Below are positions 3,353-61,548 of a stretch of 64,000 bases of DNA, piece after piece. A program made the position numbers and the translations under genes. How positions within the stretch are numbered: position 1 is the stretch's first letter; the number at the start of each line of letters is the position of its first letter. The stretch lies in the sequence record NC_031928.1; one strand, 5' to 3'. This DNA comes from Escherichia phage WG01. Under the pieces are notes generated by a model that saw only the letters and a list, made by a program, of their open reading frames with translations, searched no databases and was not told where the DNA came from.

Positions 3353-3562
3353 TTACTTTGAACTAGAACGCGCTTTGCGCCGAACCTTGTTGTTCAATCT
3401 TTTACGATAAACAACCTTTTCTTTCGCTTTAAATTTGGCCTTGGCTTGTTCTACATCAACCCATGCTTTGGCCATGTCCTTAGCGGTCCCGCCCATTTTT
3501 TTAGCAATTTCTATAAAATTCAACCCAGATTCGTGTAAAAAATGTACTTTAACCTTATCCAT
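3353..3562 (-). CDS. Small basic protein with helix-turn-helix-like segment (69 aa from ATG)
   Basis: Track ORF 3353..3601 starts at GTG; first ATG at 3562 gives MDKVKVHFL...; segment SGLNFIEIAKKMGGTAKDMAKAW and very basic C-terminus; early-type promoter upstream. Confidence 0.5.
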   Translation of the reverse strand: MDKVKVHFLHESGLNFIEIAKKMGGTAKDMAKAWVDVEQAKAKFKAKEKVVYRKRLNNKVRRKARSSSK

Positions 3563-3591
3563 AACAATTCTCTCGTTGAGTTGGTAAACCC

Positions 3592-3621
3592 ATCTTAACA
3601 CAGAATTTTTAACTTGTAAAC
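3592..3621 (-). promoter_or_regulatory. T4-type early promoter candidate
   Basis: Minus strand GTTTAC, 17-nt spacer, TTAAGAT, about 30 nt upstream of ATG at 3562. Confidence 0.4.
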
Positions 3622-15060: not shown

Positions 15061-15351
15061 TTATTTACGGAACGAAATGAAACCTGCTGTGGTCATTAGT
15101 GGTTGCTTTTTAACAAACACCGTAACCGAAATAGGAGCTTCGGATTCGAGTTGTCCTGTCACTACACCGTTAAAAATGTTTTCGGTTTGTTCTGGATAAG
15201 AAAAATTCTCAACAGGTCGGATATCAAACTGTTTGTCTTCACCGAAAACTCGACGTAATTCATTACCCACTGCACTGTCAAACTCTTCAGAAGCAGGGAT
15301 AACGTTTTCAACTACCAGTTCTTGACCATTAAAACGGAATGCAGATTTCAT
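15061..15351 (-). CDS. Hypothetical protein (96 aa), alt.-x position
   Basis: ORF downstream of the Alt-like cluster; no recognisable motif. Confidence 0.5.
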   Translation of the reverse strand: MKSAFRFNGQELVVENVIPASEEFDSAVGNELRRVFGEDKQFDIRPVENFSYPEQTENIFNGVVTGQLESEAPISVTVFVKKQPLMTTAGFISFRK

Positions 15352-15408
15352 AATGTTCTCCTCATGTTTGTGTAAGGTAATAGTACCACATCCTTGTGGT
15401 GTTGTAAA

Positions 15409-17532
15409 CTACATTTTGAATTTATTTGATAAAGAAGAGATATCCAAAGACGCTGCAAGGATTTCCATAGCCTCGTTGCTTTCAGAAACAGATTCATTAA
15501 CCAAGAATTGACTGAACCCATCCATCAGGCGAACTTCACCAGTTTCCATCAAATGGTCACCATCGTAAACAGATTCGCTGAGCTCTGAAGGAGGTGTTAC
15601 GGTAGCTTCCATAAGGTATTTGTGAGATACTCTATCATTCATGGCAAAAGCCGCTACTTTATCAACCTTCAACAATAATCCACGCGGAAGGATAATTTCT
15701 GCTTCTTCGGCATATTCTGTAAGGTCACCAGGAGCGATAACTTTAACTGCTTCAGCACCTCGAATAACCATACCAATTTCAGCAATTCTATCTGCAGGAC
15801 CTTCAGGTGCAATTGGATTACCAAACTCGTCTTCTTCCCATTCTACCTCTTCGTCATCGACTTCACCTACATCAGATGAACTACCACTAGCCAATTTAAA
15901 CAACTCATCAGCGGAGGATAAAGAACCTTCACCGCCAACAAAAACGGCTTGGTTGTCGAGGGCCATATAATTTTTACCAAATTCACCAAAGATGTTAGGT
16001 TTTAGTGAGGCTGACACAAAGTTCTTAAAGTAAAATGTTTTGTTATCGATATTATGGCGCAGAATTTTGTATGGCAAATCCTGACCACGATACAAAATAG
16101 TACCCTTAGGAAGTTTAATACCCTTAGTAAATGCCGAGTCTAAATCCTTAATCAATTTAATAGCCGTTGTATTGTTTTCGGATTCAGGTTTACCTAAAAG
16201 GAATAAGTTCATAGGAGCATATTCAGCCGCGCAATATTCAATAATAGCATTGCTTTCGTCTTTGGTTAGGTCCTTAGGTTTAATGAGCTCGCCTGAATAA
16301 GCATATGCATCACTAATAGAATCGTTAACCAGTTTATAAACGGCTTCCATAGCGAAAGCAATTCTAGATGCTTTCTCTGAAGGGGAACCCTTAAAACGGG
16401 TACTCAGGTTATTAACAATTTTCTTAATAATATCCAGACTATTGGTTGTATTGATTTGCGAAAGGCCACTTAAAAGTCTATCGACTTCTGTATTAAAAAA
16501 TGCCATATTATTAGAGTAAATTTCAAACCCTTGTTTATCTCTATTAGCATAATTTAGTTTAAATTTACTATCAGTCATTAAAGCGTGTGTGAGAGCAATA
16601 GTGTATCTAAAGTTGGCAAGGTCCTCGCTCTTAGATTTAAACTGAGAAGCCTGACGCATTTTAGTAATGGCACCTTTTTTAAAGTTCTGACTAATCTGTT
16701 CAATACCTTCGTTCTCAGGGCCTTCAGCCGTGTGAACCGGTACAGAAGCTTCAAACTCGTTATAAACCTGCAATTCTTTAGGGGACAAAGTTTCAGGCTC
16801 AGCAGTAGAATACTGCGCCGCCGCTGCCATACGACGCGAAATCTTAGTACGAGTAATGACAGCCTTATCAGTACGTTTCTCTTCAACTTGTGCAATAGAT
16901 GCCGCTACGGCTTCGACCTTACTTACAGCCTGGCCGGTTTTCTTAGAAACATACACTTCGCCAACTTTAGACTCAACTTTAGTATAAAGATCGGCATTAA
17001 TTTCAGGCATACCCTTGATATCTTCAATATTAGCACCACGACGTACTAAAAGAACGTAGGTATGTTTTCCGCTGAATTGGAACATGTCGTCAACAACTTT
17101 AAACTTACCACCGGTACGAGCCATAGCCAAGCGAGCTAATACGCGCTGAACGGTAGGACCTTTACCTTTCATTTTCTTGGTAGGGAACCGGAAAAGAACT
17201 GCATCCATTTTAAGTTTGTTTACTTGTTCGTATACAGTATCAAAAATGGTATTCAGCGTACCAAGTGGGTCAGAACCTAACCCACCTTTCAACTCGGCTG
17301 GGCTACCCTTAGCAGACAAACTCATCAAAATAACATGAACATATTTGTCGCCCGGCTTAACCATTTTAATAGCGTCTCCTTGAGACGCATAAGATACCAT
17401 ACGAGCAACCAGATTATCATTACCTGGTGCTTGGATAGAGAAAATCTGTGGAATACCGGAACCCGGTTTAAGATTTGTTACTGGATAGTTTTTAGCGGAA
17501 TCACTATCAAAAACCTCATTTAAATTTTCCAT
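15409..17532 (-). CDS. alt: Alt-like ADP-ribosyltransferase paralog 1 (707 aa)
   Basis: N-terminal LNEVF (gp21-type L-x-E cleavage context) and conserved packaging region; C-terminal R-S-E motifs YRGQ, FVSASL, EEAEIILPRG. Confidence 0.85.
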   Translation of the reverse strand: MENLNEVFDSDSAKNYPVTNLKPGSGIPQIFSIQAPGNDNLVARMVSYASQGDAIKMVKPGDKYVHVILMSLSAKGSPAELKGGLGSDPLGTLNTIFDTVYEQVNKLKMDAVLFRFPTKKMKGKGPTVQRVLARLAMARTGGKFKVVDDMFQFSGKHTYVLLVRRGANIEDIKGMPEINADLYTKVESKVGEVYVSKKTGQAVSKVEAVAASIAQVEEKRTDKAVITRTKISRRMAAAAQYSTAEPETLSPKELQVYNEFEASVPVHTAEGPENEGIEQISQNFKKGAITKMRQASQFKSKSEDLANFRYTIALTHALMTDSKFKLNYANRDKQGFEIYSNNMAFFNTEVDRLLSGLSQINTTNSLDIIKKIVNNLSTRFKGSPSEKASRIAFAMEAVYKLVNDSISDAYAYSGELIKPKDLTKDESNAIIEYCAAEYAPMNLFLLGKPESENNTTAIKLIKDLDSAFTKGIKLPKGTILYRGQDLPYKILRHNIDNKTFYFKNFVSASLKPNIFGEFGKNYMALDNQAVFVGGEGSLSSADELFKLASGSSSDVGEVDDEEVEWEEDEFGNPIAPEGPADRIAEIGMVIRGAEAVKVIAPGDLTEYAEEAEIILPRGLLLKVDKVAAFAMNDRVSHKYLMEATVTPPSELSESVYDGDHLMETGEVRLMDGFSQFLVNESVSESNEAMEILAASLDISSLSNKFKM

Positions 17533-19617: not shown

Positions 19618-19625
19618 AATCTATC

Positions 19626-24208: not shown

Positions 24209-24663
24209 AATAAATCTCTCAATTTGTTTAGGATGTCGATAAACTCTTTTTCAGTTAGTATTGTATCACATTCTGTAAGGTGGCTCGCCATCGAATGCTT
24301 TAAAACTTTGCCCTTTGTAGCTTGTAATGCGTCGCGGAATCCTTTGTTTTGGAGCGCTGCTTCAAAATAAGCATTTGTATACAACTCTTTCCATGATGCA
24401 GAGTATCTTGAAAAGGGAATTCCAAGCCAGAAAAGCGTCCCACGGTCCGCAGCTCTTGCATAAGCTCTTCCAGTTTGTTGTGCGGCCAGACCGGACATCC
24501 CAAATATACGTTTTTGTTGTTCATGATTTCTCACCTTACACCCTTGGAGGAATCCTTCGAGCCCTCCAAATTGGATACCATCCATAACGAAAGGCCATTT
24601 AGCAAAGTTACTTAATGCACACGATGGCCACGGAAAATTACTTCTGATTTCTAACTCAGACAT
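24205..24663 (-). CDS. NADAR (YbiA/DUF1768)-like protein, 30.3 position (152 aa from ATG)
   Basis: SNFAKWPFVMDGIQFGGLEGFLQGCK resembles the NADAR signature FSNF..WP...DG....E.....K; start ATG overlaps upstream stop (ATGTCTGA). Confidence 0.55.
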   Translation of the reverse strand: MSELEIRSNFPWPSCALSNFAKWPFVMDGIQFGGLEGFLQGCKVRNHEQQKRIFGMSGLAAQQTGRAYARAADRGTLFWLGIPFSRYSASWKELYTNAYFEAALQNKGFRDALQATKGKVLKHSMASHLTECDTILTEKEFIDILNKLRDLL

Positions 24664-24868
24664 CTTTGACACTGATAATCTTGGTTGCATACCACATGCC
24701 ATGGTCTGGCAATCTTTCTTTAATTGACTGCCCGCGATATGTTTTTCGCATAACAACAGTTTTAATAGCATCTTCATCGCAAGCATATGGCGGTGATAAA
24801 TCAATAACACGATAAGTCACTTCAACCAGTTCCAAGCCAAACAGCTTTTTAAATAATTTCTTAATCAT
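24656..24868 (-). CDS. Small protein (70 aa), tandem paralog A
   Basis: Paralog of 24878..25090; shared EVTYRV.DLSP and C-terminal IISVKD(V/I). Confidence 0.6.
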   Translation of the reverse strand: MIKKLFKKLFGLELVEVTYRVIDLSPPYACDEDAIKTVVMRKTYRGQSIKERLPDHGMWYATKIISVKDV

Positions 24869-24877: not shown

Positions 24878-25090
24878 TTAAATATCTTTGACACTGATAA
24901 TCTCTACATCAGCCCAATGACCATAACCAGGTAGACGGTCTTTAATAGATAATCCGCCGTCAGATTTCAGCATTTTAATTGTTTTAGTATATGGTTCATC
25001 TTGTGGATGCACAGGAGATAAATCAGTTACACGATAAGTCACTTCGACCATTTCCGTACCTAATAATTTCTGAATCAATTTCTTAAACAT
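24878..25090 (-). CDS. Small protein (70 aa), tandem paralog B
   Basis: Paralog of 24656..24868; the 3' ends share an identical 23-nt stretch. Confidence 0.6.
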   Translation of the reverse strand: MFKKLIQKLLGTEMVEVTYRVTDLSPVHPQDEPYTKTIKMLKSDGGLSIKDRLPGYGHWADVEIISVKDI

Positions 25091-25573: not shown

Positions 25574-25589
25574 AATATTTTCCTCAAAG

Positions 25590-25605
25590 GAGGCCGAAGC
25601 CTCCA
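25590..25605 (-). terminator. Intergenic UUCG-tetraloop hairpin
   Basis: GGAGGC-UUCG-GCCUCC; identical copy at 62970..62985. Confidence 0.45.
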
Positions 25606-25614
25606 TTTTTAAGA

Positions 25615-25980
25615 TTAGATGTCGAATTCGTTCAGAACTACATCAAAGATTGCTTCCAGGTGTTCAGGTTTAGCTCGGTTGCTCAGGATGTGACGAATCC
25701 AAGTTTTAACCAGAAGCTTACGATTAACACCGTTCCAGCAAGGATGGGTACCTAAATCACGTTGACGGAAATCATCATCTAAAGCGATTTTAAAAGTAGA
25801 ACCTTCCATTGTGATTGAAACCGTAATACCATTTTCAAAGCGCATATAAACGTAGTTAGGAGTCATGCACTGTTCGATTTCGCACACTGTACCGTTTTCG
25901 TGTTTCCACAGGCAAATAACTTCGGAAGAACCAGCGATACCGTTAGAAACATATTTACGTTCGAAGTTGATGTAGTTCAT
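25615..25980 (-). CDS. Hypothetical protein (121 aa from MNYINFERK)
   Basis: ATG at 25980 follows conserved leader GGAGAATAAAA; track ORF extends further upstream. Confidence 0.5.
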   Translation of the reverse strand: MNYINFERKYVSNGIAGSSEVICLWKHENGTVCEIEQCMTPNYVYMRFENGITVSITMEGSTFKIALDDDFRQRDLGTHPCWNGVNRKLLVKTWIRHILSNRAKPEHLEAIFDVVLNEFDI

Positions 25981-26022
25981 TTTTATTCTCCAGTTTGTTT
26001 TCGTATTATTTGGTACAGGTCT

Positions 26023-26052
26023 ATAATAACACAACCTGTACCAAAGTAAAAC
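26023..26052 (-). promoter_or_regulatory. Early-type promoter with 12-bp inverted repeat flanking the -10
   Basis: Minus TTTTAC, 17 nt, TATTAT; TTTGGTACAGGT / ACCTGTACCAAA inverted repeat at 26009..26020 and 26034..26045. Confidence 0.45.
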
Positions 26053-26054: not shown

Positions 26055-26387
26055 TTATTTCACGACATTCCAATTTTTCATATCAAGTTTACCAACTTTT
26101 TTCATCTGAGCAATCAGACGTTCAGCGCGTGTACGGGCATTAACATAATAGAATTCACCATTTTTGTTTTCTTCAATACGACCAGTAATTACAGTTTTCA
26201 GTTCATAAATCCAACCTGTAAAGAAGTTGTGAAGCTCGATGGTGAATGTAAAATCAGTACCCATACCTTCAGTTGTTTCAACTTCGATGATATCACCTTC
26301 AACTGCAGTCAGGACCCACATGGTTTCTTGATATTCACCGTTGAAACATTTAGCTTTAACAGATGCATTCAGATTTACAGTTTTCAT
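26055..26387 (-). CDS. Hypothetical protein (110 aa)
   Basis: ORF preceded by a leader nearly identical to that of 25615..25980. Confidence 0.55.
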   Translation of the reverse strand: MKTVNLNASVKAKCFNGEYQETMWVLTAVEGDIIEVETTEGMGTDFTFTIELHNFFTGWIYELKTVITGRIEENKNGEFYYVNARTRAERLIAQMKKVGKLDMKNWNVVK

Positions 26388-26428
26388 TTTATTCTCCAGT
26401 TTGTTTTAGTATTATTTGGTACATGTCT

Positions 26429-26457
26429 ATAGTATCACGCCTACCGGAGATGTATAC
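26429..26457 (-). promoter_or_regulatory. T4-type early promoter
   Basis: Minus GTATAC, 17 nt, TACTAT, conserved leader, SD GGAG. Confidence 0.5.
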
Positions 26458-26486
26458 CCTTTTTTTTAAAGATTTAGAAACAAAAA

Positions 26487-26508
26487 TGGGACTCCGAAGA
26501 GTCCCATA
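26487..26508 (-). terminator. Rho-independent terminator
   Basis: AUGGGACUC-UUCG-GAGUCCCAU followed by UUUUUGUUU on minus strand. Confidence 0.6.
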
Positions 26509-29022: not shown

Positions 29023-29576
29023 TAGATGGTCTCCAACTTAAGTTGTTTGGTAGTGGTAGCTTGGGTAACGTCGCCTTTAACAATATAACACACTTGTTGG
29101 AACGAACTGGTCAAAAGCTCTTCAGCCTGACGATCGGCTTGTTCCTTTGTGTTATGGCGAGAATGAACTTCAATCTTACCATTTTTAACAATAAGCACTT
29201 TCCAATCGGCCGGAGTTTTAATAGGTTTGATTTCAGGGTTCTGGAAAACTAACTGCAGTTCTTTAGGGTCTACCACTTCGATAAAGTATTCGAATTCATG
29301 GCTAAAAAAGCCTGATGAATTAAAAAGAACACTATTTGCATCATTAGGATTACCTGTCATTTTGCTCGGGTCGACAAACATCATCTCGTCATATACACGA
29401 ATTCGGCTTACACGTGGCTTCCCGTTATGGTAATCAATTTCAACTTCAAACGGATTCATACCCACATACTTAGCAAAAGCTGTATTGAGGCCATAAGCAC
29501 CGTTATTAGTGAATTTGTTTTTAGTGTATTCACCAACGAACTTATAAAACTTACGCTCTTCAAAGAACTGGCTCAT
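29022..29576 (-). CDS. Hypothetical protein (184 aa from MSQFFEERKF)
   Basis: ATG at 29576 preceded by SD GAGGAAAT and an early promoter; track ORF extends to 29687. Confidence 0.55.
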   Translation of the reverse strand: MSQFFEERKFYKFVGEYTKNKFTNNGAYGLNTAFAKYVGMNPFEVEIDYHNGKPRVSRIRVYDEMMFVDPSKMTGNPNDANSVLFNSSGFFSHEFEYFIEVVDPKELQLVFQNPEIKPIKTPADWKVLIVKNGKIEVHSRHNTKEQADRQAEELLTSSFQQVCYIVKGDVTQATTTKQLKLETI

Positions 29577-29606
29577 TTCGATTTCCTCATTTGTTTCGGT
29601 AGGACT

Positions 29607-29636
29607 ACTATACCACAGTCCTACCATAGTGTAAAC
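29607..29636 (-). promoter_or_regulatory. T4-type early promoter
   Basis: Minus GTTTAC, 18 nt, TATAGT. Confidence 0.45.
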
Positions 29637-31534: not shown

Positions 31535-32013
31535 ACACCAAGTTCCTTATAAAGTTCTTCACGGCAAGTTTTAAGGGTTTTACCTGATTCGTAAGCAACA
31601 CTTTCAGGAACATCACCGAGGGTTACTGCGGATTGCATTTGTCCATGGCGTTTAGCCGCATATTCAAAACTTTTTACTAGCTCGCGAATACGTTCTTTTT
31701 CATTGTACTCTTCAATGAATTCAGGGTATTCCCAAACCGGGCGCATCATACGATACCACTGTTGGATGGTGATATAATTACTTCCATTCAAATTAATAAT
31801 CTGCGAAGGCTCAATAGACCCTGGAGCATAAAAAGTTACCTGTCTTACTACATCAATACCGTCCACAATAGCCCAAGCAAAATTGAAAGTTGCCTTCTTT
31901 TCAAGCGGTGTACTTGCACAGGACCCTAATTTTAAGAGCTTTTGTAATACAGGAGATTTAACGCCTGAAATGTATTCAGGCTTAGCCACAAAACTGTTAT
32001 CACGTAAAGTCAT
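31531..32013 (-). CDS. Hypothetical protein (160 aa from MTLRDNSF)
   Basis: ATG at 32013 with SD GAGGAAAT; track ORF extends to 32049. Confidence 0.5.
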
Positions 32014-32076
32014 AATAATTTCCTCAAATTTTATAATCCGTAGGAGCATTATACTCTGCTCCCAAGAGTTTGTAAA

Positions 32077-32184
32077 CTACTTTCCGAAAAGACCGCCAAT
32101 ACATATACTAATCAGAATTCCAAAACAAAAGCAGACAAAACCAAATCTAACAATATCCCATCCATCAGTACACGCTTCAATCAT
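32077..32184 (-). CDS. Possible small membrane protein (35 aa) overlapping the o-spanin 3' end
   Basis: Internal ATG of track ORF 32077..32271; C-terminal hydrophobic stretch FGFVCFCFGILISICIGGLF. Confidence 0.25.
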   Translation of the reverse strand: MIEACTDGWDIVRFGFVCFCFGILISICIGGLFGK

Positions 32185-32821: not shown

Positions 32822-33309
32822 TTGGTAATAATCTCGATGATGTCATCACGTGACAGGGAATTAATAAGAACCGTTTTAGGATTTTCACACTGAATTTTAT
32901 ACGTTTCAAACATAAAACATAATTCTTCAGCAGTATGGTAAGGACTTGAAATGCCAAGGCGATTAAACTTGTCGCTTAATGGGTCGCAAATCAAATAGAA
33001 CGTGATGCCTGAGATTTTAACATTAGGTTGGCTAATATTAATAAACACCTCGGCATCGTATTTGGAAAGGTTGTTTTGGAGAAACTCGACCATAGAGTTA
33101 ACAGCTTGAGGCATTGCTTCACGCTTTTCTTCAGCGTAACGGGTAGAGTATTCTTTTTGCTTGATTTTCTTTTTAGCATTTTTAGCTAAAGTAACACGAA
33201 GATCGGTCAGGTAACCTACTGCACGAGAACCTTTAAAAACTTGGATGCCGTCAGTAGAGTCACCAAAAGCCTTAACAACCATTTCGTTAGTAATCATTTG
33301 CATATTCAT
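32809..33309 (-). CDS. alc: Alc-like protein (host transcription shutoff)
   Basis: 166 aa (T4 Alc 167 aa); position between spanins and rnlA as in T4. Confidence 0.55.
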   Translation of the reverse strand: MNMQMITNEMVVKAFGDSTDGIQVFKGSRAVGYLTDLRVTLAKNAKKKIKQKEYSTRYAEEKREAMPQAVNSMVEFLQNNLSKYDAEVFINISQPNVKISGITFYLICDPLSDKFNRLGISSPYHTAEELCFMFETYKIQCENPKTVLINSLSRDDIIEIITKCLN

Positions 33310-33339
33310 TTTGTTTTCTCCTCATTAGTTGGTAAGTCT

Positions 33340-33368
33340 ATACTAACACGTCATGAGGAGATGTAAAC
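33340..33368 (-). promoter_or_regulatory. T4-type early promoter for alc
   Basis: Minus GTTTAC, 17 nt, TAGTAT, conserved leader CTAATGAGGAGAAAA. Confidence 0.5.
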
Positions 33369-38862: not shown

Positions 38863-40548
<1,686 letters not shown>

Positions 40549-40573
40549 TTTATTCTCCTTAGTTGATAAGGCT

Positions 40574-40603
40574 ATAGTATCACTACCATAGCCTGGTGTA
40601 AAC
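40574..40603 (-). promoter_or_regulatory. T4-type early promoter cassette
   Basis: Minus GTTTAC, 18 nt, TACTAT, leader CTTATCAACTAAGGAGAA. Confidence 0.5.
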
Positions 40604-40831
40604 TTATTTTTGAATTAGGCCCATATAAAATTTAGCGTCTTCCGGGTGCATACCGTCACAATACTCGTCAGCCATAAAGCGGGTAAGGTCTTCAAGAGGA
40701 CCTTGGACTTCAATTTGCATACTACAGAATTGAGTATCTTTAATATGGGTCATAACTAAAGAAGGATAACGATTACGGATAACTTCGTAAGTGTATTCAA
40801 AATCAACGATATCAATATTAACCTTAGCCAT
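40604..40831 (-). CDS. Hypothetical protein (75 aa from MAKVNIDIV)
   Basis: Second ATG chosen because the first lies inside the conserved promoter leader. Confidence 0.5.
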
Positions 40832-40863
40832 TTTATTTTCCTCACTCATTAGTTGATAGGTCT

Positions 40864-40892
40864 ATAGTATCATGTTTAAAGGCGTTGTAAAC
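40864..40892 (-). promoter_or_regulatory. T4-type early promoter cassette
   Basis: Minus GTTTAC, 17 nt, TACTAT, leader AGACCTATCAACTAATGAGTGAGGAAAA. Confidence 0.55.
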
Positions 40893-40894
40893 AT

Positions 40895-41155
40895 TTATTT
40901 TTGAATTTTATCAAGCCATTTACCAAGTTTAATCATTTCTTTGGTAGCTTTTTCCATACTTCTAAATTTAACCAGTAAAGGTTGGGCATCAACACCCATA
41001 ACTAAGGTGGTTACAAGACTATGTTCACCTACAAGCCATAATGAATAAGTTTGGATATCGAGCCCGTAATTTCGGTCTTTATGAACTCGTACACCCATCA
41101 CTTCAAATTTCTCACTGGCTTTTTCTACTGCATCCAGGAAATCATCTTTAGTCAT
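40895..41155 (-). CDS. Hypothetical protein (86 aa from MTKDDFLDAV)
   Basis: Internal ATG avoids 62-nt overlap with upstream gene. Confidence 0.45.
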   Translation of the reverse strand: MTKDDFLDAVEKASEKFEVMGVRVHKDRNYGLDIQTYSLWLVGEHSLVTTLVMGVDAQPLLVKFRSMEKATKEMIKLGKWLDKIQK

Positions 41156-41156
41156 A

Positions 41157-41546
41157 TTAGGCCTTAAAAGTTTTTTGCAAAAGTTCAATGATTTGGTCAA
41201 CGTTCTGTTCGGTGACAATGCAATGGATTTGAGTCACACCGGCCTTAGCAATAGGCTCATCGATTTCTTTATCTTCCACAACATATTCACAGAAGCAATA
41301 GAACTCATCTTCATGCAACTCAAAATAATTTGGCACCAACCCAAATGCATTATAAATCTCGCCATTTGCACATTCGATTTCAGTCACAAATTTGTCGCCA
41401 TCCATAGTCAACATATCCTTTACTTCAAACCAACCTCCGTTGTCTTGGATAAGGTCGACCATGCTTTTATTATTTTCATATTCGTCCATTTCAATAAAGT
41501 CTTTAATGCATTCAGGACGAAGTTCATAAGTTTTACCGATTTCCAT
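41157..41546 (-). CDS. Hypothetical acidic protein (129 aa)
   Basis: ATG at 41546 with SD GAGGAAAT; early promoter upstream. Confidence 0.55.
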   Translation of the reverse strand: MEIGKTYELRPECIKDFIEMDEYENNKSMVDLIQDNGGWFEVKDMLTMDGDKFVTEIECANGEIYNAFGLVPNYFELHEDEFYCFCEYVVEDKEIDEPIAKAGVTQIHCIVTEQNVDQIIELLQKTFKA

Positions 41547-41577
41547 TTTATTTCCTCATCTATTAGTTGATAGGTCT

Positions 41578-41606
41578 ATAGTATCACGTTTAAAGGCGTT
41601 GTAAAC
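41578..41606 (-). promoter_or_regulatory. T4-type early promoter cassette
   Basis: Minus GTTTAC, 17 nt, TACTAT; near-identical to the copy at 40864..40892. Confidence 0.55.
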
Positions 41607-41622
41607 CATTAAATGCCAAAAA

Positions 41623-41642
41623 GGGAAGACCGAAGTCTTCCC
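41623..41642 (-). terminator. Rho-independent terminator downstream of gene 32
   Basis: GGGAAGAC-UUCG-GUCUUCCC followed by UUUUU on minus strand. Confidence 0.65.
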
Positions 41643-41658
41643 ATTATAAATCAATAAC

Positions 41659-42564
41659 TTATAGACCAGCTAACAGGTCGTCCAGACCATCGTCATCAGA
41701 AGGACTTACTGACGGCTCAGGAGTAGTGGAACGAGTCGGTGTAGATGGTTTAGAATCATATGCATCAAGGTCTGCACTGAATGCGTCCAGGTCATCACCA
41801 ATCTTATCAGCGGCTGCAGAAGCTTTAGCGGCAGCACCACCAAGAGCAGCTGTACCAACAACTTTCTTAAACTTGGCTTCGTTAGTTTCGAATGATTTGA
41901 AATCGAGCAGTTTAGAAAGGTCGTGCATTTCTTCCATCAATTTAGCTTGGTAAGCTTCATCATTGATGTTAGGAATTTCAGACTGACCCATGAATTTGGA
42001 ATCGTCATAGTTCTTGAAGTCGCCAACTTTCTTAGATTTCAGTACGAAGTTCGCACCATCAAACGGACATGTTACGTCAACCGGCACTTCACCAATATCG
42101 GTATCAACTTCAACCATCTGGTTGATTTTATCCATAATTTTCTGACCGAAACGGAATTTAAACACTTTACCTTCGTTAGCAGGCACTGCACTATCCTTAA
42201 TAACAAGGATGTTAGCCCAGAAGGAAGTTTTACGTTTCATCAGTTTGTATTCGGCATTATTAGTATTAAAGGTATCATTCTGGTTCATGTATTTACATAC
42301 AGGACATGAATCGAAATCACCGTGTGTAGACGTACAGTTTTCAATGTACCATTGACCATTTTTCTTAAAGCCGTGGTTAACGAGCTTAATGAATGGAGAT
42401 GGATTTTCTTCGTTTTTCGAAGGTAGGAAACGAATTACCGCAGTACCAACGCCATTGTCATCTTTCAATTTCCATTCAGCTTTATCATCGGAAGAGAAAG
42501 AAGAACCACCTTTCATTGCAGACAGTTGAGCAGCCAGTTGGGAAGGGTCTTTACGTTTAAACAT
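41659..42564 (-). CDS. 32: gp32 single-stranded DNA-binding protein
   Basis: 301 aa; [14 protein letters not shown]...[34 protein letters not shown] matches remembered T4 gp32; acidic C-terminus. Confidence 0.95.
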
Positions 42565-42628
42565 ATTATTTACCTTAGCAGATTTAGCAGTTATATTTTA
42601 TTAACAGTTTTTAACAGATTGAGTTAGT

Positions 42629-42655
42629 ATATTAACACAGTTGGTTTGAAGCATT
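42629..42655 (-). promoter_or_regulatory. MotA-dependent middle promoter for gene 32, with AU-rich leader
   Basis: Minus AATGCTTCA (MotA box), 12 nt, TAATAT; about 55-nt AU-rich leader. Confidence 0.5.
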
Positions 42656-43307
42656 AAAACTTACAAGATTTGATAGTTTCAATGAACAATTTACGAGCTT
42701 CTAAATTATCGATTATAAGAATTTTCTTATAAGCATTTAATTTAGTCGAATACTTAGACCACACTAAATCGTTGGTCTGTTCATCATGTTTATCAATTAT
42801 ATCCATAAATGAATCAAGCAAAATAAACGTTTCGAATGAAATAACATTCGATTGAAGGAGCTTAAAAATATAGCTCGAGTTAACTTTTTTATTATAATCA
42901 AAAATTTCAGAAAGCGCTTTAACTTCCACTTTCTTACTGAAATAATAGATGTTTTTGATATCGTCCTCAAAAACTTGTTTTATTCTTTTAAGTCTACCGA
43001 TATATTCTCGGTAAAAGACTAAGGCGTCGGCATCACTGATGTCGCCAATCCATGCGTCTTGGTTAGCCACCAAGTTACTCATGAAAATAAGAGCAAGCTC
43101 TTTCAAAGTGTATTTATCACTCAATTTCTCAAAGAAATATTTGTCACGACGTTTTTGATAAGCCGTATCAGAGATTCGCATGACCCAGTTATATTTTATA
43201 ACGTCGTATTTGGCATTGAAGTGATGTTTGAGCATTAAGTATAGTGAATATACGCTCTTACCATTCACCATACGGTTATTGTTTGGTGGCATGCGAATCT
43301 TAATCAT
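42654..43307 (-). CDS. 59: gp59 helicase loader
   Basis: 217 aa; KYDVIKYNWVMRISDTAYQKRRDKYFFEKL closely matches remembered T4 gp59. Confidence 0.95.
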   Translation of the reverse strand: MIKIRMPPNNNRMVNGKSVYSLYLMLKHHFNAKYDVIKYNWVMRISDTAYQKRRDKYFFEKLSDKYTLKELALIFMSNLVANQDAWIGDISDADALVFYREYIGRLKRIKQVFEDDIKNIYYFSKKVEVKALSEIFDYNKKVNSSYIFKLLQSNVISFETFILLDSFMDIIDKHDEQTNDLVWSKYSTKLNAYKKILIIDNLEARKLFIETIKSCKF

Positions 43308-43866: not shown

Positions 43867-44814
43867 TTAATAAAAATCAGCTACTGTAGCAGTTAGTTTA
43901 GACAAACCAGATTTAACGAAATAAGGATAAACTTTAGATTTCGAAGGTTTGTTATACGTATTATATCTTTCAGTAATTAAAGCAACAATATCATCTGGAA
44001 TAAAGTCCATATCAATTAAGATTTGGTTTTCACAGAAACGTTCATATTGTTCTTCAGTAAGAAGTGTTTTAATTATATCATGGTCGTAATAATTCAGAGC
44101 AATTGCTTCAAGTTCCTTGGCACGAGTGCTAGGAGTACGTTCGCCTTCAACCATCGTCAACCAGTAATCACCACGAACTTTAATACTCGCGACGTTATCT
44201 TTACGGTCACCTTTAACAACCTTAGTCACGCAATCAAGCAATGAATCGCCAGATTTTGTTTTGACGAATTTTTTCTGCATTGGAGACCATTGTTTTACCC
44301 CAGGGAATTTATGGAGCTGGGTAAAGTCACCATCCGAAGAACCGATCATAACAGGATGGCCTAAAGCCGTGAGGATTCGGGTTAAAACAGCAATATGGTC
44401 ATCAGCTTCGATTGTATCGATATTCATAACAATATAAGGCATGTTTTGTTCCAGTTCATCAACAATAATATGCATTGCTGTGAATAAACCTTCCCAATCA
44501 AATGGTGATTCGTCACGTGCCTTAGCACGGTTTTTCTTATAATAAGGTGAATAGCGACGACGCCAATAACCTGATTTAGAGTTATCAACACAAATAACCA
44601 GTTGGTTGTACCCCTGTTTTTTAAAGTCTTTAATATTTTTCTTAATTGAATTCAACACGAGGTGTCGAAGCATTGCTGTAGTTACTTTAGGAAATCCAGC
44701 ATTCTCACCAAACTCTTGGAAAGCTGCAGCCATAATGATTTGGCTGAAATCTAGGAGTAAAAATCCATCTTTTTGTTGGTCTTCTTCAGGAAGTAAAAAA
44801 TCTAAATCGTTCAT
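43867..44814 (-). CDS. rnh: RNase H (5'-3' exonuclease / flap endonuclease)
   Basis: Start at MNDLDFLL; motifs ICVDNSKSGYWRR, EADDHIAVL, SSDGDFTQL match remembered T4 RNase H. Confidence 0.92.
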   Translation of the reverse strand: MNDLDFLLPEEDQQKDGFLLLDFSQIIMAAAFQEFGENAGFPKVTTAMLRHLVLNSIKKNIKDFKKQGYNQLVICVDNSKSGYWRRRYSPYYKKNRAKARDESPFDWEGLFTAMHIIVDELEQNMPYIVMNIDTIEADDHIAVLTRILTALGHPVMIGSSDGDFTQLHKFPGVKQWSPMQKKFVKTKSGDSLLDCVTKVVKGDRKDNVASIKVRGDYWLTMVEGERTPSTRAKELEAIALNYYDHDIIKTLLTEEQYERFCENQILIDMDFIPDDIVALITERYNTYNKPSKSKVYPYFVKSGLSKLTATVADFY

Positions 44815-44881
44815 ATGAACCTCTGTCCAATTAGTGTAGAGGTTCATTATATCACGACCCTAGAAGAAGTAAACACTTTGC

Positions 44882-48979: not shown

Positions 48980-50101
48980 ATGGAAAGATTTATGGCAGAA
49001 TTTGGACAAGGATATGTCCAGGTTCCTACATTATCTGAAAACAATGCTGTAAGGTATAAACTTAGTATAGCGGGTAGTTGTACTAAGTCTACCACAAAAG
49101 CATATGTTAAATTTCAAGATGGGAACTTCGGTTCCCAGAATTTTCAAAATGGATTAAACCTTATAGAAATTGATGTTAGTGCTGAACCTAAAATAGTGGC
49201 TAACAAAACTTATAGTTTTACAAAAGATTTTGATGTTATTTCTGAAGCTTTTATAACGTATATAAATTCTATACCGGCCAATAGAATAGTTTGTTTAGTA
49301 TCTTCTGGTAGATTAAATGCTTCACAAAAACTTATCGATTGGTTCCGTGCAGCAGGAAGTACCGCATTCCCGTCTAAATGGTTGATAGACCGGTTTGAGC
49401 CGTCTTATTCTGCATTTTATGTTTCAGGAAGGAATGCTATAGTAATGGAACATGTGCTTTATAATGATGGGGTATTGGTCGAAGATGTTTCTACTCCATT
49501 AGAAGTGGTATTTGATGATATCAGTGATGTCGGTGGTACAGGATATCCTGTCAGAATTGTTGAAGACGAAAGCACTTATCTAAGCAATGATGGAGATGAA
49601 ATTAAGCGATTTCCTACCGAATCTCCTACCACCCCATTAACAGATTATAACATGAAGCCAGGTGAATTCTTTTACCTTAAGTTTCAATTAATGCGCGACC
49701 AAGCTTTAAAAGACGTAGGGACTTCTCAGATGTCTGTTAGATTTTTTAATGCCTCAGGTGCTTTAACTGGGACAGTTAATATGGACGTTCCTTCCAACGT
49801 TCCTGCTGGCGCATGGATGACATTTGAACGGGTAGTAATGGTTCCTGAAGGTACTACAGACTTTACTCTTTATGCCAGAAAAACAGCTTCGGCTGGCCAA
49901 GGCGGAGTTCGAAATGTTATGTTCGGTGAGATATCTGAATCAGAACCTCAGCCAAAACCTGCTGAATTTGGTGTTAACGGTATTCGTATGAACTTTGGTA
50001 CGGAAACTAAAAATATGGGTACTACCATAGCCCAGCTATATGATAAAACAGGCACTAAACCTGGTCAGGTTTGGGTCGCTGAATTTAGAGAAAAATATTA
50101 A
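48980..50101 (+). CDS. 35: Long tail fibre hinge protein gp35
   Basis: 373 aa (T4 gp35 372 aa); position. Confidence 0.85.
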   Translation: MERFMAEFGQGYVQVPTLSENNAVRYKLSIAGSCTKSTTKAYVKFQDGNFGSQNFQNGLNLIEIDVSAEPKIVANKTYSFTKDFDVISEAFITYINSIPANRIVCLVSSGRLNASQKLIDWFRAAGSTAFPSKWLIDRFEPSYSAFYVSGRNAIVMEHVLYNDGVLVEDVSTPLEVVFDDISDVGGTGYPVRIVEDESTYLSNDGDEIKRFPTESPTTPLTDYNMKPGEFFYLKFQLMRDQALKDVGTSQMSVRFFNASGALTGTVNMDVPSNVPAGAWMTFERVVMVPEGTTDFTLYARKTASAGQGGVRNVMFGEISESEPQPKPAEFGVNGIRMNFGTETKNMGTTIAQLYDKTGTKPGQVWVAEFREKY

Positions 50102-50127
50102 GGAACCTTCGGGTTCCTTTTTCGTTT
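50102..50127 (+). terminator. Rho-independent terminator after gene 35
   Basis: GGAACC-UUCG-GGUUCC followed by UUUUUCGUUUU. Confidence 0.65.
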
Positions 50128-55649: not shown

Positions 55650-55921
55650 AAATTGGAGGTATACATCATTAAGTAACGGTGTATATCTTCATACCCTTCA
55701 TTAAATTGCTCAATAAGAGTGTCACGTTCATCTTCAGTTAATGACTTAAATAATTTGTTATAAGACAAACCATTAAGTTCCTTTCCATGTTCATTACGAA
55801 TACCCAACTCATTCAAAAAGGCAATAAACTCATCACGACGTTGCATGATGTCTTCACAATCCGTTTTAATCAAAATGGAAACAATAGTAGCAATTTCGGA
55901 AACAATTTCAATTTTAGTCAT
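55646..55921 (-). CDS. asiA: AsiA anti-sigma-70 factor
   Basis: 91 aa; IATIVSILIK...FIAFLNELGI...LIEQFNEGYEDIHRYLMMYT matches remembered T4 AsiA. Confidence 0.9.
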   Translation of the reverse strand: MTKIEIVSEIATIVSILIKTDCEDIMQRRDEFIAFLNELGIRNEHGKELNGLSYNKLFKSLTEDERDTLIEQFNEGYEDIHRYLMMYTSNF

Positions 55922-55962
55922 AATATTCTCTTCAATTCAGTACGCCATTATCTGATAGGGCT

Positions 55963-55991
55963 ATACTAACATATCCTTAGGGATTGTAAAC
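55963..55991 (-). promoter_or_regulatory. T4-type early promoter for asiA
   Basis: Minus GTTTAC, 17 nt, TAGTAT, leader AGCCCTATCAGATAATGG. Confidence 0.5.
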
Positions 55992-56506: not shown

Positions 56507-56994
56507 TAGTAAAGGTCCTCAGAGTAAAGTTCTTTTTCACTACCACCACGTTCAATACGAACTTGATTAGCATAAGTCGCAATAATCATTGCTTCTTCGC
56601 GAGTCCAATAATTACCATATTGGTCGACAAAGCCTTGGTCATCATCACAGACAAATCGTGTTACCAATTTATCTTCAACCGCCTTGATAACCGCACCCAT
56701 ATCTTTAGAGTAATGACGTGTCGCAGGAATAACCAGAGTTCCACCATCTTTTAACTTAAAACGGTTTGCAGCACACACAATTCGACGCTGGAATTTTTGG
56801 TCTTCGCACCAATGAGCGATTTGCCAACAGATTTCAGGAACCTCTTCCAAAACATCCTCTTCTGTATATTCGGTGTAATCGCCATAAGCCCGTAATTTAG
56901 CTGCTAGACTTTCAGGCGTCTCACGAGAAAGAGCTTTATCTAATAAAGCCATACGGTCTTTAAAGGATAATGCTTTACCTTTTAATAGATTCAT
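56506..56994 (-). CDS. Hypothetical protein (162 aa)
   Basis: ORF with overlapping start/stop with neighbours. Confidence 0.5.
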
Positions 56995-57338
56995 TTGAAA
57001 ATCACCTTATGACCATTATCTTTAGCAAATTCTTGAATTTTGGTGGCAGTTTCAATTAAATCACCTTTATAATAGGATGATAATTTAATATTAACTGTTT
57101 GGCCCTCGCCATACGAAGTTATATTTACCTTTTCAATAAAAATAATCTCAAGAAATCGTAATAACTGCATACCAAATTCAAGATAAACGTTATCAATCTG
57201 GAGATCGAGTTGGTAAATTTTCTTAATACCGCTTACCAAAGCTACACGCTCGTCCCAATCATTACGTTGTTCTTCAATCAATTTAAGGGAATGACCTTCA
57301 CCGTCCCAGTTAAGTTCCATCGGAATCATTTGAACCAT
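56991..57338 (-). CDS. Hypothetical protein (115 aa)
   Basis: ORF, translationally coupled to neighbours. Confidence 0.5.
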
Positions 57339-57669: not shown

Positions 57670-58305
57670 TCAGATAATTGCGTTGGTTACGGTTTTGATA
57701 ACTTCAGATGATACATTTTGGAAGTCGATATAAGTATTCTTACCACCGGTCTTAATCTTAACATCAAGATTCAAGGAAGTAAACACTTGTTTTTCTTTAT
57801 CGGTCATATTATAACCGAAGATGCGCATCATTCCGTCACGACGGACTTCAATTTGACGAATACCATTGGTACGTTTGGCGAATCGAACTTCAAGGTTGCT
57901 ACGGTTTTCAGCAATTTCACGAATCTCGATACGGTCTTCTAATAAAGCTTTAACTTCATCAGCCAGTGTTACCATTTCAGGAGTAACACCACGTGAACTA
58001 CGCGTTTTACGTTTTTCCAACATCTCTGGAGCATTTTCAGAAGCGAACAAGTCAGCAGCTTTTTGAACTAGGTCCATTGCTTCACCTGTAGCCACTAGTC
58101 CGTCACCAGATTTTTCGATGAATCCTTTCTTAATTAATACACCGATATTAGAGTTAACTACCGCAGCACTAAATTGCTCACTCAGGGCTTCACGGACTTC
58201 GCCTGAAGTGATGAAGTTATGCTTGATGATATGTACTAAGATCGAAGCCGTTTTTTCATTCAGGGCGTCTTCAGAAGCTTTGATGATATAAGTAATTTTA
58301 GACAT
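57670..58305 (-). CDS. motA: MotA middle-transcription activator
   Basis: 211 aa; MSKITYIIKASEDALNEKTASILV...VVNSNIGVLIKKGFIEKSGDGL closely matches remembered T4 MotA. Confidence 0.95.
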   Translation of the reverse strand: MSKITYIIKASEDALNEKTASILVHIIKHNFITSGEVREALSEQFSAAVVNSNIGVLIKKGFIEKSGDGLVATGEAMDLVQKAADLFASENAPEMLEKRKTRSSRGVTPEMVTLADEVKALLEDRIEIREIAENRSNLEVRFAKRTNGIRQIEVRRDGMMRIFGYNMTDKEKQVFTSLNLDVKIKTGGKNTYIDFQNVSSEVIKTVTNAII

Positions 58306-58340
58306 TTTGTATCTCCGATAACCATTTATTTGATAGGTCT

Positions 58341-58369
58341 ATAGTATCATGTTTAAAGCAGATGTAAAC
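58341..58369 (-). promoter_or_regulatory. T4-type early promoter for motA
   Basis: Minus GTTTAC, 17 nt, TACTAT, leader AGACCTATCAAATAAATGG. Confidence 0.55.
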
Positions 58370-58392: not shown

Positions 58393-58412
58393 AAGGAACC
58401 CGAAGGTTCCTT
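58393..58412 (-). terminator. Rho-independent terminator
   Basis: AAGGAACC-UUCG-GGUUCCUU followed by U7 on minus strand. Confidence 0.65.
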
Positions 58413-59895: not shown

Positions 59896-60036
59896 TTACC
59901 ATACTAGTGAATGAATAGCCATAATAACATCGGAAATAAAAAGCACAACTTGGATAAGTCCGAACATTACTCCGTAATACAGCGCTACTAATAAAGCAGC
60001 AAGGGCTAACGAGTAGCCCAGGATTTTATTAATCAT
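59896..60036 (-). CDS. Small hydrophobic membrane peptide (46 aa from MINKILGYSL)
   Basis: Internal ATG of track ORF 59896..60084; start overlaps the stop of the upstream 54-aa peptide gene. Confidence 0.4.
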   Translation of the reverse strand: MINKILGYSLALAALLVALYYGVMFGLIQVVLFISDVIMAIHSLVW

Positions 60037-60190
60037 TTTTAATCGTCTTAAGTAAACCGACAAAAGTAGAAAGAACCCAACCAATAAGCAGAAAACTTAA
60101 GAATATCGGACCAGGGGTCCACACACCTAAAAAGAAGCAAACTGAACAGACTATAGCCATAATAAGTTCAATAAAAACTAGGATAACCAT
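60026..60190 (-). CDS. Small hydrophobic membrane peptide (54 aa)
   Basis: Translated by hand: MVILVFIELIMAIVCSVCFFLGVWTPGPIFLSFLLIGWVLSTFVGLLKTIKND; SD GAGGAAAAT; not in ORF track. Confidence 0.4.
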
Positions 60191-60202
60191 ATTTTCCTCA
60201 TT

Positions 60203-60217
60203 AGCGTCCGAAGACGC
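60203..60217 (-). terminator. UUCG hairpin downstream of ndd
   Basis: GGCGUC-UUCG-GACGC between ndd stop and the small peptide gene. Confidence 0.4.
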
Positions 60218-60277: not shown

Positions 60278-60727
60278 TTAGTAAGCCTGCAGGATGAATT
60301 TAAAGTTATCAGCCAACATACGGTTCATTTCTTCCAGTGTCTGGAGGTCGGAACTATGATTACGAGTGAAAGCCATTGCAATTTGACCCTTACCAAAACC
60401 TGTAGTCAGGGGTTTCATCTTAGAAGCCGGTACATAAAGAACTTCATACACAACACCGTTCACTGCCATAGTGCGAGCTGATTGAGAACGTTTCTTACGA
60501 ATGTTAGCCACGATACCGTCGAGCCCTTGGGCCGAACGTTGATTACCGACATAAAAACGAGCCGCTACGACACGAGAATCAGCACCACCTTTAACAAAGA
60601 AGTAGAAGCCTGGTTGAGCAGAGATTTCTTTAGAAGGTTTACCATTTTGGTATTCACCGTTCTTAACATAAGCAACAGTAGTAGCACCAGCAGACAGAAC
60701 GTTACGGCGAGTCATATAAGTATTCAT
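60278..60727 (-). CDS. ndd: Ndd nucleoid disruption protein
   Basis: 149 aa; C-terminal half [47 protein letters not shown] matches remembered T4 Ndd. Confidence 0.93.
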
Positions 60728-60776
60728 ATCAATTTCCTCAGTAGATTAATGTTTTGTTATCCGGTCAACGAGAACC

Positions 60777-60805
60777 ATTATAACATGATTCTCGAGGTTG
60801 TAAAC
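60777..60805 (-). promoter_or_regulatory. T4-type early promoter for ndd
   Basis: Minus GTTTAC, 17 nt, TATAAT, SD GAGGAAAT. Confidence 0.5.
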
Positions 60806-61414: not shown

Positions 61415-61498
61415 TCATAAAAACGATTGGGAAAATGCTCAATACCATTAACAACACAAACATGTTCCAAATTGCTTTAAGTAAGTTTTTCATAATCA
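61390..61498 (-). CDS. Possible small membrane peptide (35 aa)
   Basis: Translated by hand: MKNLLKAIWNMFVLLMVLSIFPIVFMIDHVRVFFNF; SD GGAGATGA downstream of early promoter; not in ORF track. Confidence 0.3.
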
Positions 61499-61519
61499 TC
61501 TCCATTAGTTGATAGGTCT

Positions 61520-61548
61520 ATAATATCATGATTAATGGAGATGTATAC
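61520..61548 (-). promoter_or_regulatory. T4-type early promoter cassette (variant -35 GTATAC)
   Basis: Minus GTATAC, 17 nt, TATTAT, leader AGACCTATCAACTAATGGAGATG. Confidence 0.45.

Follow-up and report, generated by a model that had tools for sequence, protein, structure and literature searches.

The 64,000-nt stretch of Escherichia phage WG01 that we analysed (sequence record NC_031928.1; called the window below, with coordinates throughout given as positions in it) carries a promoter-like sequence, GTTTAC followed by a spacer and TA(C/G)TAT, which recurs on the minus strand and whose conservation continues past the hexamers into the leader of the gene that follows. This raises the question of whether the sites are independent promoters that have come to resemble one another, or copies of a single cassette akin to the promoter-early stem-loop (PeSL) elements of T4-type phages. 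We conclude that they are very probably sigma-70-dependent early promoters of a JS98/MX01-like phage, which serve at the same time as recombination-active modules of the PeSL type. The whole set comprises 16 sites, eight of which had been put forward in an initial annotation of this DNA.

Going by the annotation of its relatives, the window spans gene 24 to rIIB. Over positions 40300-42000 its identity is 99.4% with Escherichia phage MX01 and with vB_EcoM-E33, 96% with IME08 and 91% with JS98 and JS10; all five belong to the genus Dhakavirus (Straboviridae, Tevenvirinae). Classical T4 early and middle genes lie on its minus-strand stretches (alt, 30.x, cd, pseT, alc, nrd, td, frd, 32, motA, asiA, ndd and denB).

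Dinucleotide shuffles would lead one to expect 0.21 matches to the pattern GTTTAC-N16-19-TANTAT; the window has eight exact ones, all of them on the minus strand. Seven coincide with sites of the initial annotation, whose eight minus-strand copies are all present; the remaining match lies at 15380-15409. The hexamers that it had given, GTTTAC and TA(C/G)TAT, hold for seven of its sites, while 61520-61548 has GTATAC as -35 and TATTAT as -10 and hence falls outside the exact pattern. TGn stands immediately 5' of the -10 in eight out of eight. Cassette leaders run for 19-43 nt, down to the ATG of a minus-strand open reading frame (ORF), and the 25 nt upstream of the -35 contain 68-80% A+T, compared with 60.5% window-wide; the exception is the site at 41606 (60%), where a terminator fills that space. 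Run independently, a repeat finder recovered the same family as 6 copies of 66 nt, 7 of 46 nt and 5 of 39 nt. At the level of sequence, the description of these sites as early promoter-leader cassettes is thereby borne out: GTTTAC, a spacer of 17-18 nt, TGn, TA(C/G/T)TAT, an AT-rich upstream tract, and a Shine-Dalgarno sequence (SD) with ATG. The eight sites are as follows, each referred to below by its upper coordinate; z compares folding with that of shuffled sequences, and RegB/S1 denotes the published nuclease target consensus GGAGRAYARAA (PMC3014915).

61903..61963, minus strand: cassette of an 88-aa ORF that resembles RB69 ORF270c and lies 3' of denB; -35 at 61958-61963, -10 TACTAT at 61934-61939, downstream block CTTCCTATCAACTAAT, ATG at 61903-61905; the leader GGAGAACAAAA is an exact RegB/S1 match; no significant hairpin (z -0.07).
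61491..61548, minus strand: cassette of a 36-aa ORF, GTATAC / TATTAT; fold z -3.53, the spacer ATCTCCATTA pairing with the SD-containing leader TAATGGAGAT so as to place the -10 and the predicted +1 (61513) in the loop; the pairing covaries among phages.
58303..58369, minus strand: motA cassette; -35 at 58364-58369, -10 at 58341-58346, downstream block AGACCTATCAAATAAA, SD inside CGGAGAT, ATG at 58303-58305; in relatives a junction, with one or two ORFs present or absent.
55919..55991, minus strand: asiA cassette; -10 TAGTAT at 55963-55968, downstream block AGCCCTATCAGATAAT, 35-nt leader; no significant hairpin (z -0.70).
41544..41606, minus strand: frd.2 cassette, just 3' of gene 32; -10 at 41578-41583, downstream block AGACCTATCAACTAAT; spacer 16/17 identical to that of the 40892 copy.
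40829..40892, minus strand: frd.3 cassette, its -35 beginning 2 nt past the orf86 stop codon; downstream block AGACCTATCAACTAAT; no significant hairpin (z +0.10).
40546..40603, minus strand: frd.1 cassette, its -35 adjoining the frd.3 stop codon; fold z -3.05, with a 7-bp stem AGGCTAT/ATAGCCT around TGn and the -10; GGAGAATAAAA is an exact RegB/S1 match.
33307..33368, minus strand: alc cassette; -10 TAGTAT, downstream block AGACTTACCAACTAAT; fold z -3.12, the spacer TCTCCTCAT pairing with the SD-containing ATGAGGAGA.

Eight related sites lie beyond these. Two of them, with cores at 26429-26457 and 26023-26051, form a sub-family with a 52-nt leader at 92% identity; the others are 15380-15409 and promoters of TATAAT/TATAGT type at 60805, 44874, 32077, 29636 and 3621.

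26385..26457, minus strand: gene 30.8 cassette (repeat family D10), GTATAC / TACTAT, downstream block AGACATGTACCAAATAATAC...; preceded by a terminator at 26486-26507; 52-nt leader shared with the 26051 copy.
25978..26051, minus strand: gene 30.7 cassette, TTTTAC / TATTAT; 12-bp stem TTTGGTACAGGT/ACCTGTACCAAA around the -10, z -5.53.
15349..15409, minus strand: alt.-3 cassette, an exact pattern match; downstream block TACCTTACAC, small hairpin CCACAAGGATGTGG in the spacer.
29574..29636, minus strand: TATAGT-type early promoter; 9-10-bp stem GGTAGGACT/AGTCCTACC around TGn and the -10, z -3.47, covarying among T4-like phages.
60725..60805, minus strand: ndd promoter, TATAAT type; stem CGAGAATC/GGTTCTCG around the -10, z -2.53.
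44812..44874, minus strand: rnh promoter, TATAAT type; a 10-bp leader hairpin takes in the SD.
32011..32077, minus strand: TATAAT-type promoter; stem GGGAGCA/GCTCC around the -10, z -2.43.
3560..3621, minus strand: gene 24.3 promoter (TAAGAT), preceded by the terminator hairpin GGGCCGCAAGGCCC; in IME08 a 982-bp insertion lies directly 5' of its -35.

When the sites were aligned on the -10, positions -6 to about +9, counted from the predicted start (AGACCT|ATCAACTAA), had a high information content, which dropped before the SD, so that conservation does extend past the hexamers, as had been claimed. In the eight sites first proposed, about 15 bases are conserved after the -10 (AGACCTATCAACTAA); the 11-mer CTATCAACTAA has four exact occurrences, each of them within a cassette. 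The conserved 24-mer quoted for this region is real as a consensus, but no copy carries it and only two sites come within three mismatches, a consequence of the varying stretch that separates the conserved block from SD and ATG (leaders of 19-35 nt). Likewise, 'near-identical' is apt for 61548, 58369, 41606 and 40892, whose spacers agree at 12-16 of 17 positions, but not for the other four (6-10 of 17), which have the promoter elements and the downstream block in common and unrelated spacers.

The genes downstream give the first indication of what the sites are. In Pfam searches, their products were assigned to MotA, AsiA, ALC, FRD2, FRD3 and DUF5417 (Frd.1); motA, asiA, alc and frd-type products are hallmark immediate-early genes of T4. 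Since the T4 GenBank record has no annotated promoter features, we compared the two phages through a promoter scan of our own, which found the matching architecture in T4 at motA, asiA and frd.1, downstream of gene 32, downstream of denB, and at rnh. T4 also carries the element CTATCAACTA / CTATCAAC after the -10, as in TACTAT-ACAACTATCAACTAC and TACTAT-TACCCTATCAA. The promoters at the same positions in T4, together with the common CTATCAACTA, therefore mark the cassettes as T4-type early promoters and make much of the extended conservation a property of the promoter class. This agrees with published descriptions, in which T4 early promoters consist of UP element, -35, TGn and -10 with 'additional regions of consensus' (PMC2988021) and GTTTAC-type early promoters are found across T4-like phages (PMC1524935). 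The RegB/S1 consensus, for its part, has four matches in the window against 0.45 expected, and all four lie in cassette leaders, which fits these leaders belonging to early mRNAs.

The block after the -10 stands at a fixed distance from the -10 and at a variable distance from the SD and ATG, from which we infer that it is part of the promoter (discriminator plus initial transcribed sequence) rather than a translation signal. Were it instead mainly an RNA element at the mRNA 5' end, acting to enhance translation, to set mRNA stability or to admit a nuclease, one would expect what is indeed seen in part: each transcript would begin with roughly 9 nt of the block, and the leaders are A-rich, unstructured and provided with RegB-type GGAG sites. 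The register argues otherwise, as does the position of AGACCT: these six bases, out of roughly 15 that are conserved, precede the predicted start. In addition, Rfam at gathering thresholds returned no match anywhere in the window, cassette leaders included, and a known RNA family in the leaders was rejected on that count. We consider this alternative improbable. A third reading takes the lineage-specific -6 to +9 block for the binding site of a phage factor, one involved for example in early-promoter shut-off or in Alt-dependent stimulation. It draws on the difference between ACAACT|ATCAACTAC in T4 and AGACCT|ATCAACTAA here, although both phages use E. coli RNA polymerase, and on reviews according to which the shut-off mechanism is not understood (PMC2988021, PMC3014915). 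Against it, no candidate protein was identified, some early promoters lack the block, and gene conversion would explain lineage-specific variants equally well; we consider this reading very improbable.

Membership of a promoter class does not by itself account for how alike the copies are. Over the 16 nt after the -10, mean agreement is 13.1 of 16 within the window, compared with 10.0 within T4 and 10.1 between window and T4, orthologous window-T4 pairs agreeing at 8-11 of 16. The frd.3 promoter has three different spacers in the window, IME08 and JS98, each of which matches cassettes elsewhere; the IME08 copies adjoining motA share changes specific to IME08 (ACGTGTTATTAT); and the JS98 NrdC.8 promoter combines the exact 17-nt spacer of the JS98 ndd.x promoter with a leader of its own, CTACTGGAGG, which we read as a chimera with its crossover in the conserved core. 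With a 64-nt cassette as query, BLAST located 13-17 sites in each Dhakavirus genome, 15 in that of VR5 and 1-4 in those of other Tevenvirinae, and an exact-core pattern found 10-12 copies per Dhakavirus or VR5 genome. A 41-nt match in 'Salmonella phage SHP1' (KY979109.1) was set aside as a cassette from outside the T4-type phages, the record being a partial Dhakavirus genome. That record is 62.8 kb long though titled complete, is classified as Dhakavirus, and has its cassette near tRNA genes.

These observations bear on the possibility that the sites are independent promoters, held alike by convergent or purifying selection for an RNA polymerase optimum, with no role in recombination and with junctions that coincide by chance. 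The block and the promoter positions that T4 shares (CTATCAAC), the fixed register with the -10 and the location of most insertions and deletions away from cassettes are all as this would predict. Near-identical spacers in four copies are not, nor are genome-specific variants common to adjacent paralogues, the chimeric cassette of JS98, a motA-locus difference from JS98 with both ends inside a 40-bp perfect repeat, or a divergent 30.8 allele sharply bounded by two conserved cassettes (both described below). Independence on its own therefore looks unlikely to us, and the extended identity appears to reflect both selection on a promoter class and sequence exchange among copies. The initial view of one cassette copied, as opposed to independent promoters, is upheld in part, by spacer sharing, by the paralogue variants and by the JS98 chimera, and needs qualifying in that the post-10 element occurs in T4 too.

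Turning to recombination, a PeSL as published combines an AT-rich tract and an early promoter with a stem-loop, and includes an SD and ATG; the position of the stem-loop varies (upstream, in the spacer, or over the -35 or -10), and the elements are enriched in hyperplastic regions, with insertion and deletion junctions within cassettes (Arbiol 2010, PMC2839356; Comeau 2014, PMC4122927). The PeSL authors have already pointed, in passing, to sequences of this type in JS98, and also to analogues in T-even internal-protein loci that are built on T4 early promoters. The resemblance to PeSLs that had been proposed for the present sites is supported: their anatomy broadly fits this definition, and in relatives some insertion, deletion and replacement junctions lie within them. 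They occupy the frd.x, ndd.x, 30.x and 52.1-motA regions, in intergenic positions among small variable ORFs. A stem-loop is associated with 11 of the 16, in the form of seven embedded hairpins and four upstream terminators. The embedded hairpins, at 61548, 60805, 40603, 33368, 32077, 29636 and 26051, fold better than shuffles (z -2.4 to -5.5) with the -10 in the loop. Canonical terminators stand 17-28 nt upstream of the cassettes at 41606, 58369, 26457 and 3621, including these two:

58393..58412, minus strand: intrinsic-terminator hairpin AAGGAACCTTCGGGTTCCTT with T run, ending 24 nt 5' of the motA -35.
41623..41642, minus strand: gene 32 terminator hairpin GGGAAGACTTCGGTCTTCCC with T run, ending 17 nt 5' of the frd.2 cassette -35.

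The first corresponds to the PeSL layout with the stem-loop upstream. Its 20-nt hairpin AAGGAACCTTCGGGTTCCTT is found in identical form on the plus strand at 50100-50119, after gene 35, as well as at 58393-58412 on the minus strand, after gene 52.1.

One set of junctions is at 52.1-motA. In JS98, orf253 lies there between two cassettes identical at 40 of 40 positions, and the single cassette of the window has on its upstream side the flank of the first JS98 copy and on its downstream side that of the second; in IME08 three cassettes accompany two ORFs, and across relatives the locus measures about 800, about 1100-1146 or 1423 bp. The JS98 orf253 (merged locus about 59990-60010) ends ...ATTAAAGACCTATCAATCTAA, which places a AGACCTATCAA remnant within its coding 3' end, just before the next cassette; this remnant may be a decayed half-cassette. 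In the 30.x region, the gene 30.8 coding sequence of IME08 is about 55% identical to its counterpart, and both bounding cassettes are at least 97% identical, a swap of alleles between two cassettes. The IME08 insertion beside the 3621 promoter is a further junction of this sort.

A third set of junctions concerns the frd genes, whose order is frd.3-frd.2-frd.1 in T4 and frd.2-orf86-frd.3-frd.1 in the window. Gene frd.2a, with 92% protein identity between JS98 and LHE83, is absent from the window and IME08; in JS98 it lies directly past the post-gene 32 promoter, and in LHE83 between frd.3 and frd.1 with a hairpin promoter of its own. The LHE83 module takes the place of the 40603 cassette of the window, and the replaced stretch begins exactly at the frd.3 stop codon and ends at the frd.1 SD. 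Window orf86 and frd.3 have the ending ATTCAAAAATAA (Ile-Gln-Lys-stop) in common, at 40893-40907 and 40604-40616 (repeat family D11), so the repeat extends 12 nt 5' of the -35 and takes in the final codons of two genes that are not related. The LHE83 frd.3 end diverges exactly from the ATTCAAAAATAA point. The JS98 frd.2a/frd.2b difference by the 41606 cassette was considered as a cassette-mediated event and rejected, since it is a tandem gene duplication.

Several results weigh against reading the sites as early promoters that are also active in recombination. Five of the 16 cassettes have no significant stem-loop, including three of the eight first proposed (61963, 55991 and 40892). Only about four or five of the roughly 33 large differences from JS98, IME08 and MX01 fall at cassettes (1-2 of 13 large gaps for JS98, 3 of 14 for IME08, 0 of about 6 for MX01), and most plasticity is unrelated to them, involving alt paralogues, tail-fibre genes, a homing endonuclease and ORF insertions with overlapping start and stop codons. 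Cassette positions thus mark junctions between related genomes at specific loci and for a minority of differences, and cassettes as the chief source of insertions and deletions are unsupported by the large-gap list for these three relatives. Generic sigma-70 consensus scans did not single the sites out (51 found and 54.6 expected in one, 61 and 49.7 in another), which disqualifies them as a discriminator and makes the promoter call dependent on the T4-specific consensus. The literature searched contained no transcript 5' ends, promoter activity or timing for this phage, no transcript data for its relatives, nor any usable transcription start mapping for T4 or JS98-like phages; 'early' and the +1 position are accordingly carried over from T4. 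Finally, no clean line can be drawn between selection and gene conversion as what conserves the downstream block. Taken together, the comparisons lead us to regard the cassettes as real crossover points, though not as the chief origin of plasticity here.

Some of the variable features named above can be placed. The window has three tandem paralogues of alt (RNA polymerase ADP-ribosyltransferase), of 707, 693 and 631 aa, at 15409-21521; there are likewise three in MX01 and two in JS98 and IME08, and the copy-number difference maps within the paralogues, away from any cassette. In the MX01 region 147393-148010, a homing-endonuclease gene (ORF236) lies between gene 32 and gene 59, like T4 segG, and has no counterpart at about 42612-42656 of the window. 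A 115-aa ORF at 56991-57338, between arn.3 and arn.4, is present in IME08 (orf242) and absent from MX01; it is inserted with start/stop codon overlaps and has no cassette nearby. On a finer scale, identity between the window and MX01 flips between at least 99% and 90-97% every few hundred bases. As this switching occurs window-wide, it was uninformative as to whether cassettes form the edges of the mosaic.

We also examined the helices within the promoters themselves. No U tract follows the embedded hairpins, which makes intrinsic terminator function unlikely. For the TATAGT type, an IMG/VR scan with a pattern fixing the hexamers and four downstream bases yielded 19 distinct TGn-bearing promoters, T4 and JS98 among them; for the main family, cassettes were selected by the 3' arm alone (ATCAACTANNGGAG), giving 16 distinct ones, of which 14 have the complementary [A/T]TCTCCnnTAG in the spacer. 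In alignments whose sequences are related and one of whose structures was derived from an alignment member, the TATAGT-type 10-bp helix between spacer and discriminator/initial transcribed sequence is paired in 89.5% of cells, as against 22-60% in slid registers; five of its pairs changed on both sides, with 16 double-change cells versus 6.4 +/- 2.3 in shuffles (0/500). Chance matches to the TATAGT pattern that lack TGn and SD form stems of at most 4 bp. With the same limits on its alignment, the 11-bp helix of the main family is paired in 93.8% of cells (30-56% when slid) and has three double-change pairs, one of them being A-U seven times, U-A six times and G-U twice; its double-change cells number 9, compared with 3.3 +/- 1.1 in shuffles (0/500). 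The occurrence of G.U pairs on the sense strand favours an RNA helix over a DNA cruciform. Since the predicted start lies within the loop, such a helix could form only in read-through RNA.

In a subset the 3' arm reaches the SD. The probability that the SD is unpaired is predicted at 0.65 in the own transcript and 0.01 in read-through RNA for 61548, and at 0.89 and 0.26 for 33368. Predicted sequestration exceeds that of shuffled controls in five of 28 Dhakavirus promoters and one of 12 T4 promoters. As a general cassette property, spacer-SD pairing was rejected, mean read-through SD accessibility being 0.43 compared with 0.45 in shuffles; it is kept here as a property predicted for a sub-family. 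The NrdC.8 chimera of JS98 (IMG/VR copy of NC_010105; cf. MX01 48792) breaks the spacer-SD helix kept at this locus in other Dhakavirus. At rnh, the 10-bp leader hairpin (TGAACCTCTA...GAGGTTCA, 44812-44845) covers the SD GAGG, and does so in the gene's own promoter transcript as well. We tentatively suggest, as a minority expectation of ours from these folding models, that a selected helix of spacer and post-10 region (in the sub-family with an SD/RegB arm) would separate own from read-through transcripts: the former would have an open SD and be RegB-sensitive and translated, and the latter a closed SD and be protected and untranslated.

The following picture would accommodate these results. 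Each module runs from an A/T-rich tract through GTTTAC, a 17-18 nt spacer ending in TGn and a -10 TA(C/G/T)TAT to AGACCT|ATCAACTAA, a short A-rich leader with a GGAG or GAGG SD, and ATG. Right after infection, host RNA polymerase would start about 7 nt past the -10, at the A of ATCAAC, which for the eight sites first proposed falls at 61927, 61513, 58334, 55956, 41571, 40857, 40567 and 33333, and produce the mRNAs of motA, asiA, alc, frd.1-3 and small accessory ORFs, whose A-rich GGAG leaders would suit later cleavage by the phage RegB/S1 nuclease. Two forces probably conserve the modules: promoter-class selection, seen in a block that keeps the -10 register and is shared with T4, and exchange among copies, seen in a spacer common to four of them though not read base by base. 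As dispersed direct repeats of 40-65 bp in a phage with very active homologous recombination, the cassettes very probably serve as crossover points, and comparison with relatives shows such crossovers to add, delete, replace or relocate the small ORFs between them, a PeSL-type shuffling. In many cassettes the spacer may also form a helix with the post-10 region, or in a subset with the SD, whose 5' arm the own transcripts would lack.

If so, a phage genus used in therapy offers a natural example of promoter cassettes as portable homology for small early genes, whose gain, loss and relocation via cassettes would help to interpret the variable regions of T4-like genomes. The cassette list also provides annotators with a map of predicted early transcription units. 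Gating by helices, if true, would insulate neighbouring modules and tie ORF expression to the brief firing of early promoters; the helices suggest a layer of control that bears on the long-open question of how T4-type phages end early expression.

Two other repeats of the window may be recorded here. One is a second, promoterless repeat cassette on the minus strand (25575-25607, 60189-60221 and 62963-62995; family D8), with three intergenic 33-nt copies 76-79% identical to the reference, each consisting of a UUCG-loop hairpin (GGAGGCTTCGGCCTCC; one variant GGCGTCTTCGGACGC) followed directly by TTTGAGGAAAATAT and ATG. The other comprises tandem paralogous 70-aa ORFs at 24656-24868 and 24878-25090, with a 77-nt repeat at 78% identity (family D7).

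Set beside known systems, the cassettes belong to a kind that has already been described, that of T4 early promoters and PeSL elements. With T4 early promoters they share the -35 GTTTAC, TGn, a -10 of the form TAnnnT (often TACTAT), A/T-rich upstream sequence, minus-strand early genes, the neighbourhoods of motA, asiA, frd.1, post-gene 32, post-denB and rnh, and the element CTATCAAC. They differ in discriminator (AGACCT here, ACAACT or TACCCT in T4) and in spacer, mostly 17 nt here and 18 nt in T4. Their best-conserved part lies downstream of the -10 (AGACCTATCAACTAA), whereas in T4 the upstream tract (AAAAATTTTTTCACAAAAC-GTTTAC) is more uniform. In T4, one and the same 30-nt sequence (TTTTTATTTTAAAAATTTTTTCACAAAACG) precedes the -35 at motA and after gene 32, with close matches at other promoters, so the homogenised part would be the upstream tract in T4 and the downstream block here. 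As to the RegB/S1 sites of T4 early leaders, four cassette leaders match them exactly and most others have GGAG in the SD; in contrast, regB lies outside the window, 40892 and 41606 are among the cassettes that use GAGG without GGAG, and cleavage here is predicted.

The PeSLs of RB49/phi1, PST/T4 and nt-1/KVP40 have the same composite anatomy and the same clustering among small non-essential ORFs, and there too near relatives differ by ORF insertion, deletion and replacement with junctions at cassettes. The G-run/C-run stems of RB49 are absent here, however, the embedded hairpins lack a U tract, 5 of 16 cassettes are without a significant stem-loop, and cassettes explain only a minority of the window's differences. 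For the helices, the nearest precedent is that of T4 genes e, soc, 49 and I-TevI, which have a late promoter within an SD-sequestering hairpin (PMC3014915). In both cases, here by prediction, a promoter sits in a hairpin whose 3' arm lies over the SD, so that transcripts from upstream would hide the SD and internal ones lack the 5' arm. The internal promoter of the T4 genes is late, whereas here it is an early sigma-70 promoter, the gating is predicted only, and it concerns a subset, 61548 and 33368 in the window. The covarying spacer-leader helices may be the only part of the present system that goes beyond earlier descriptions.

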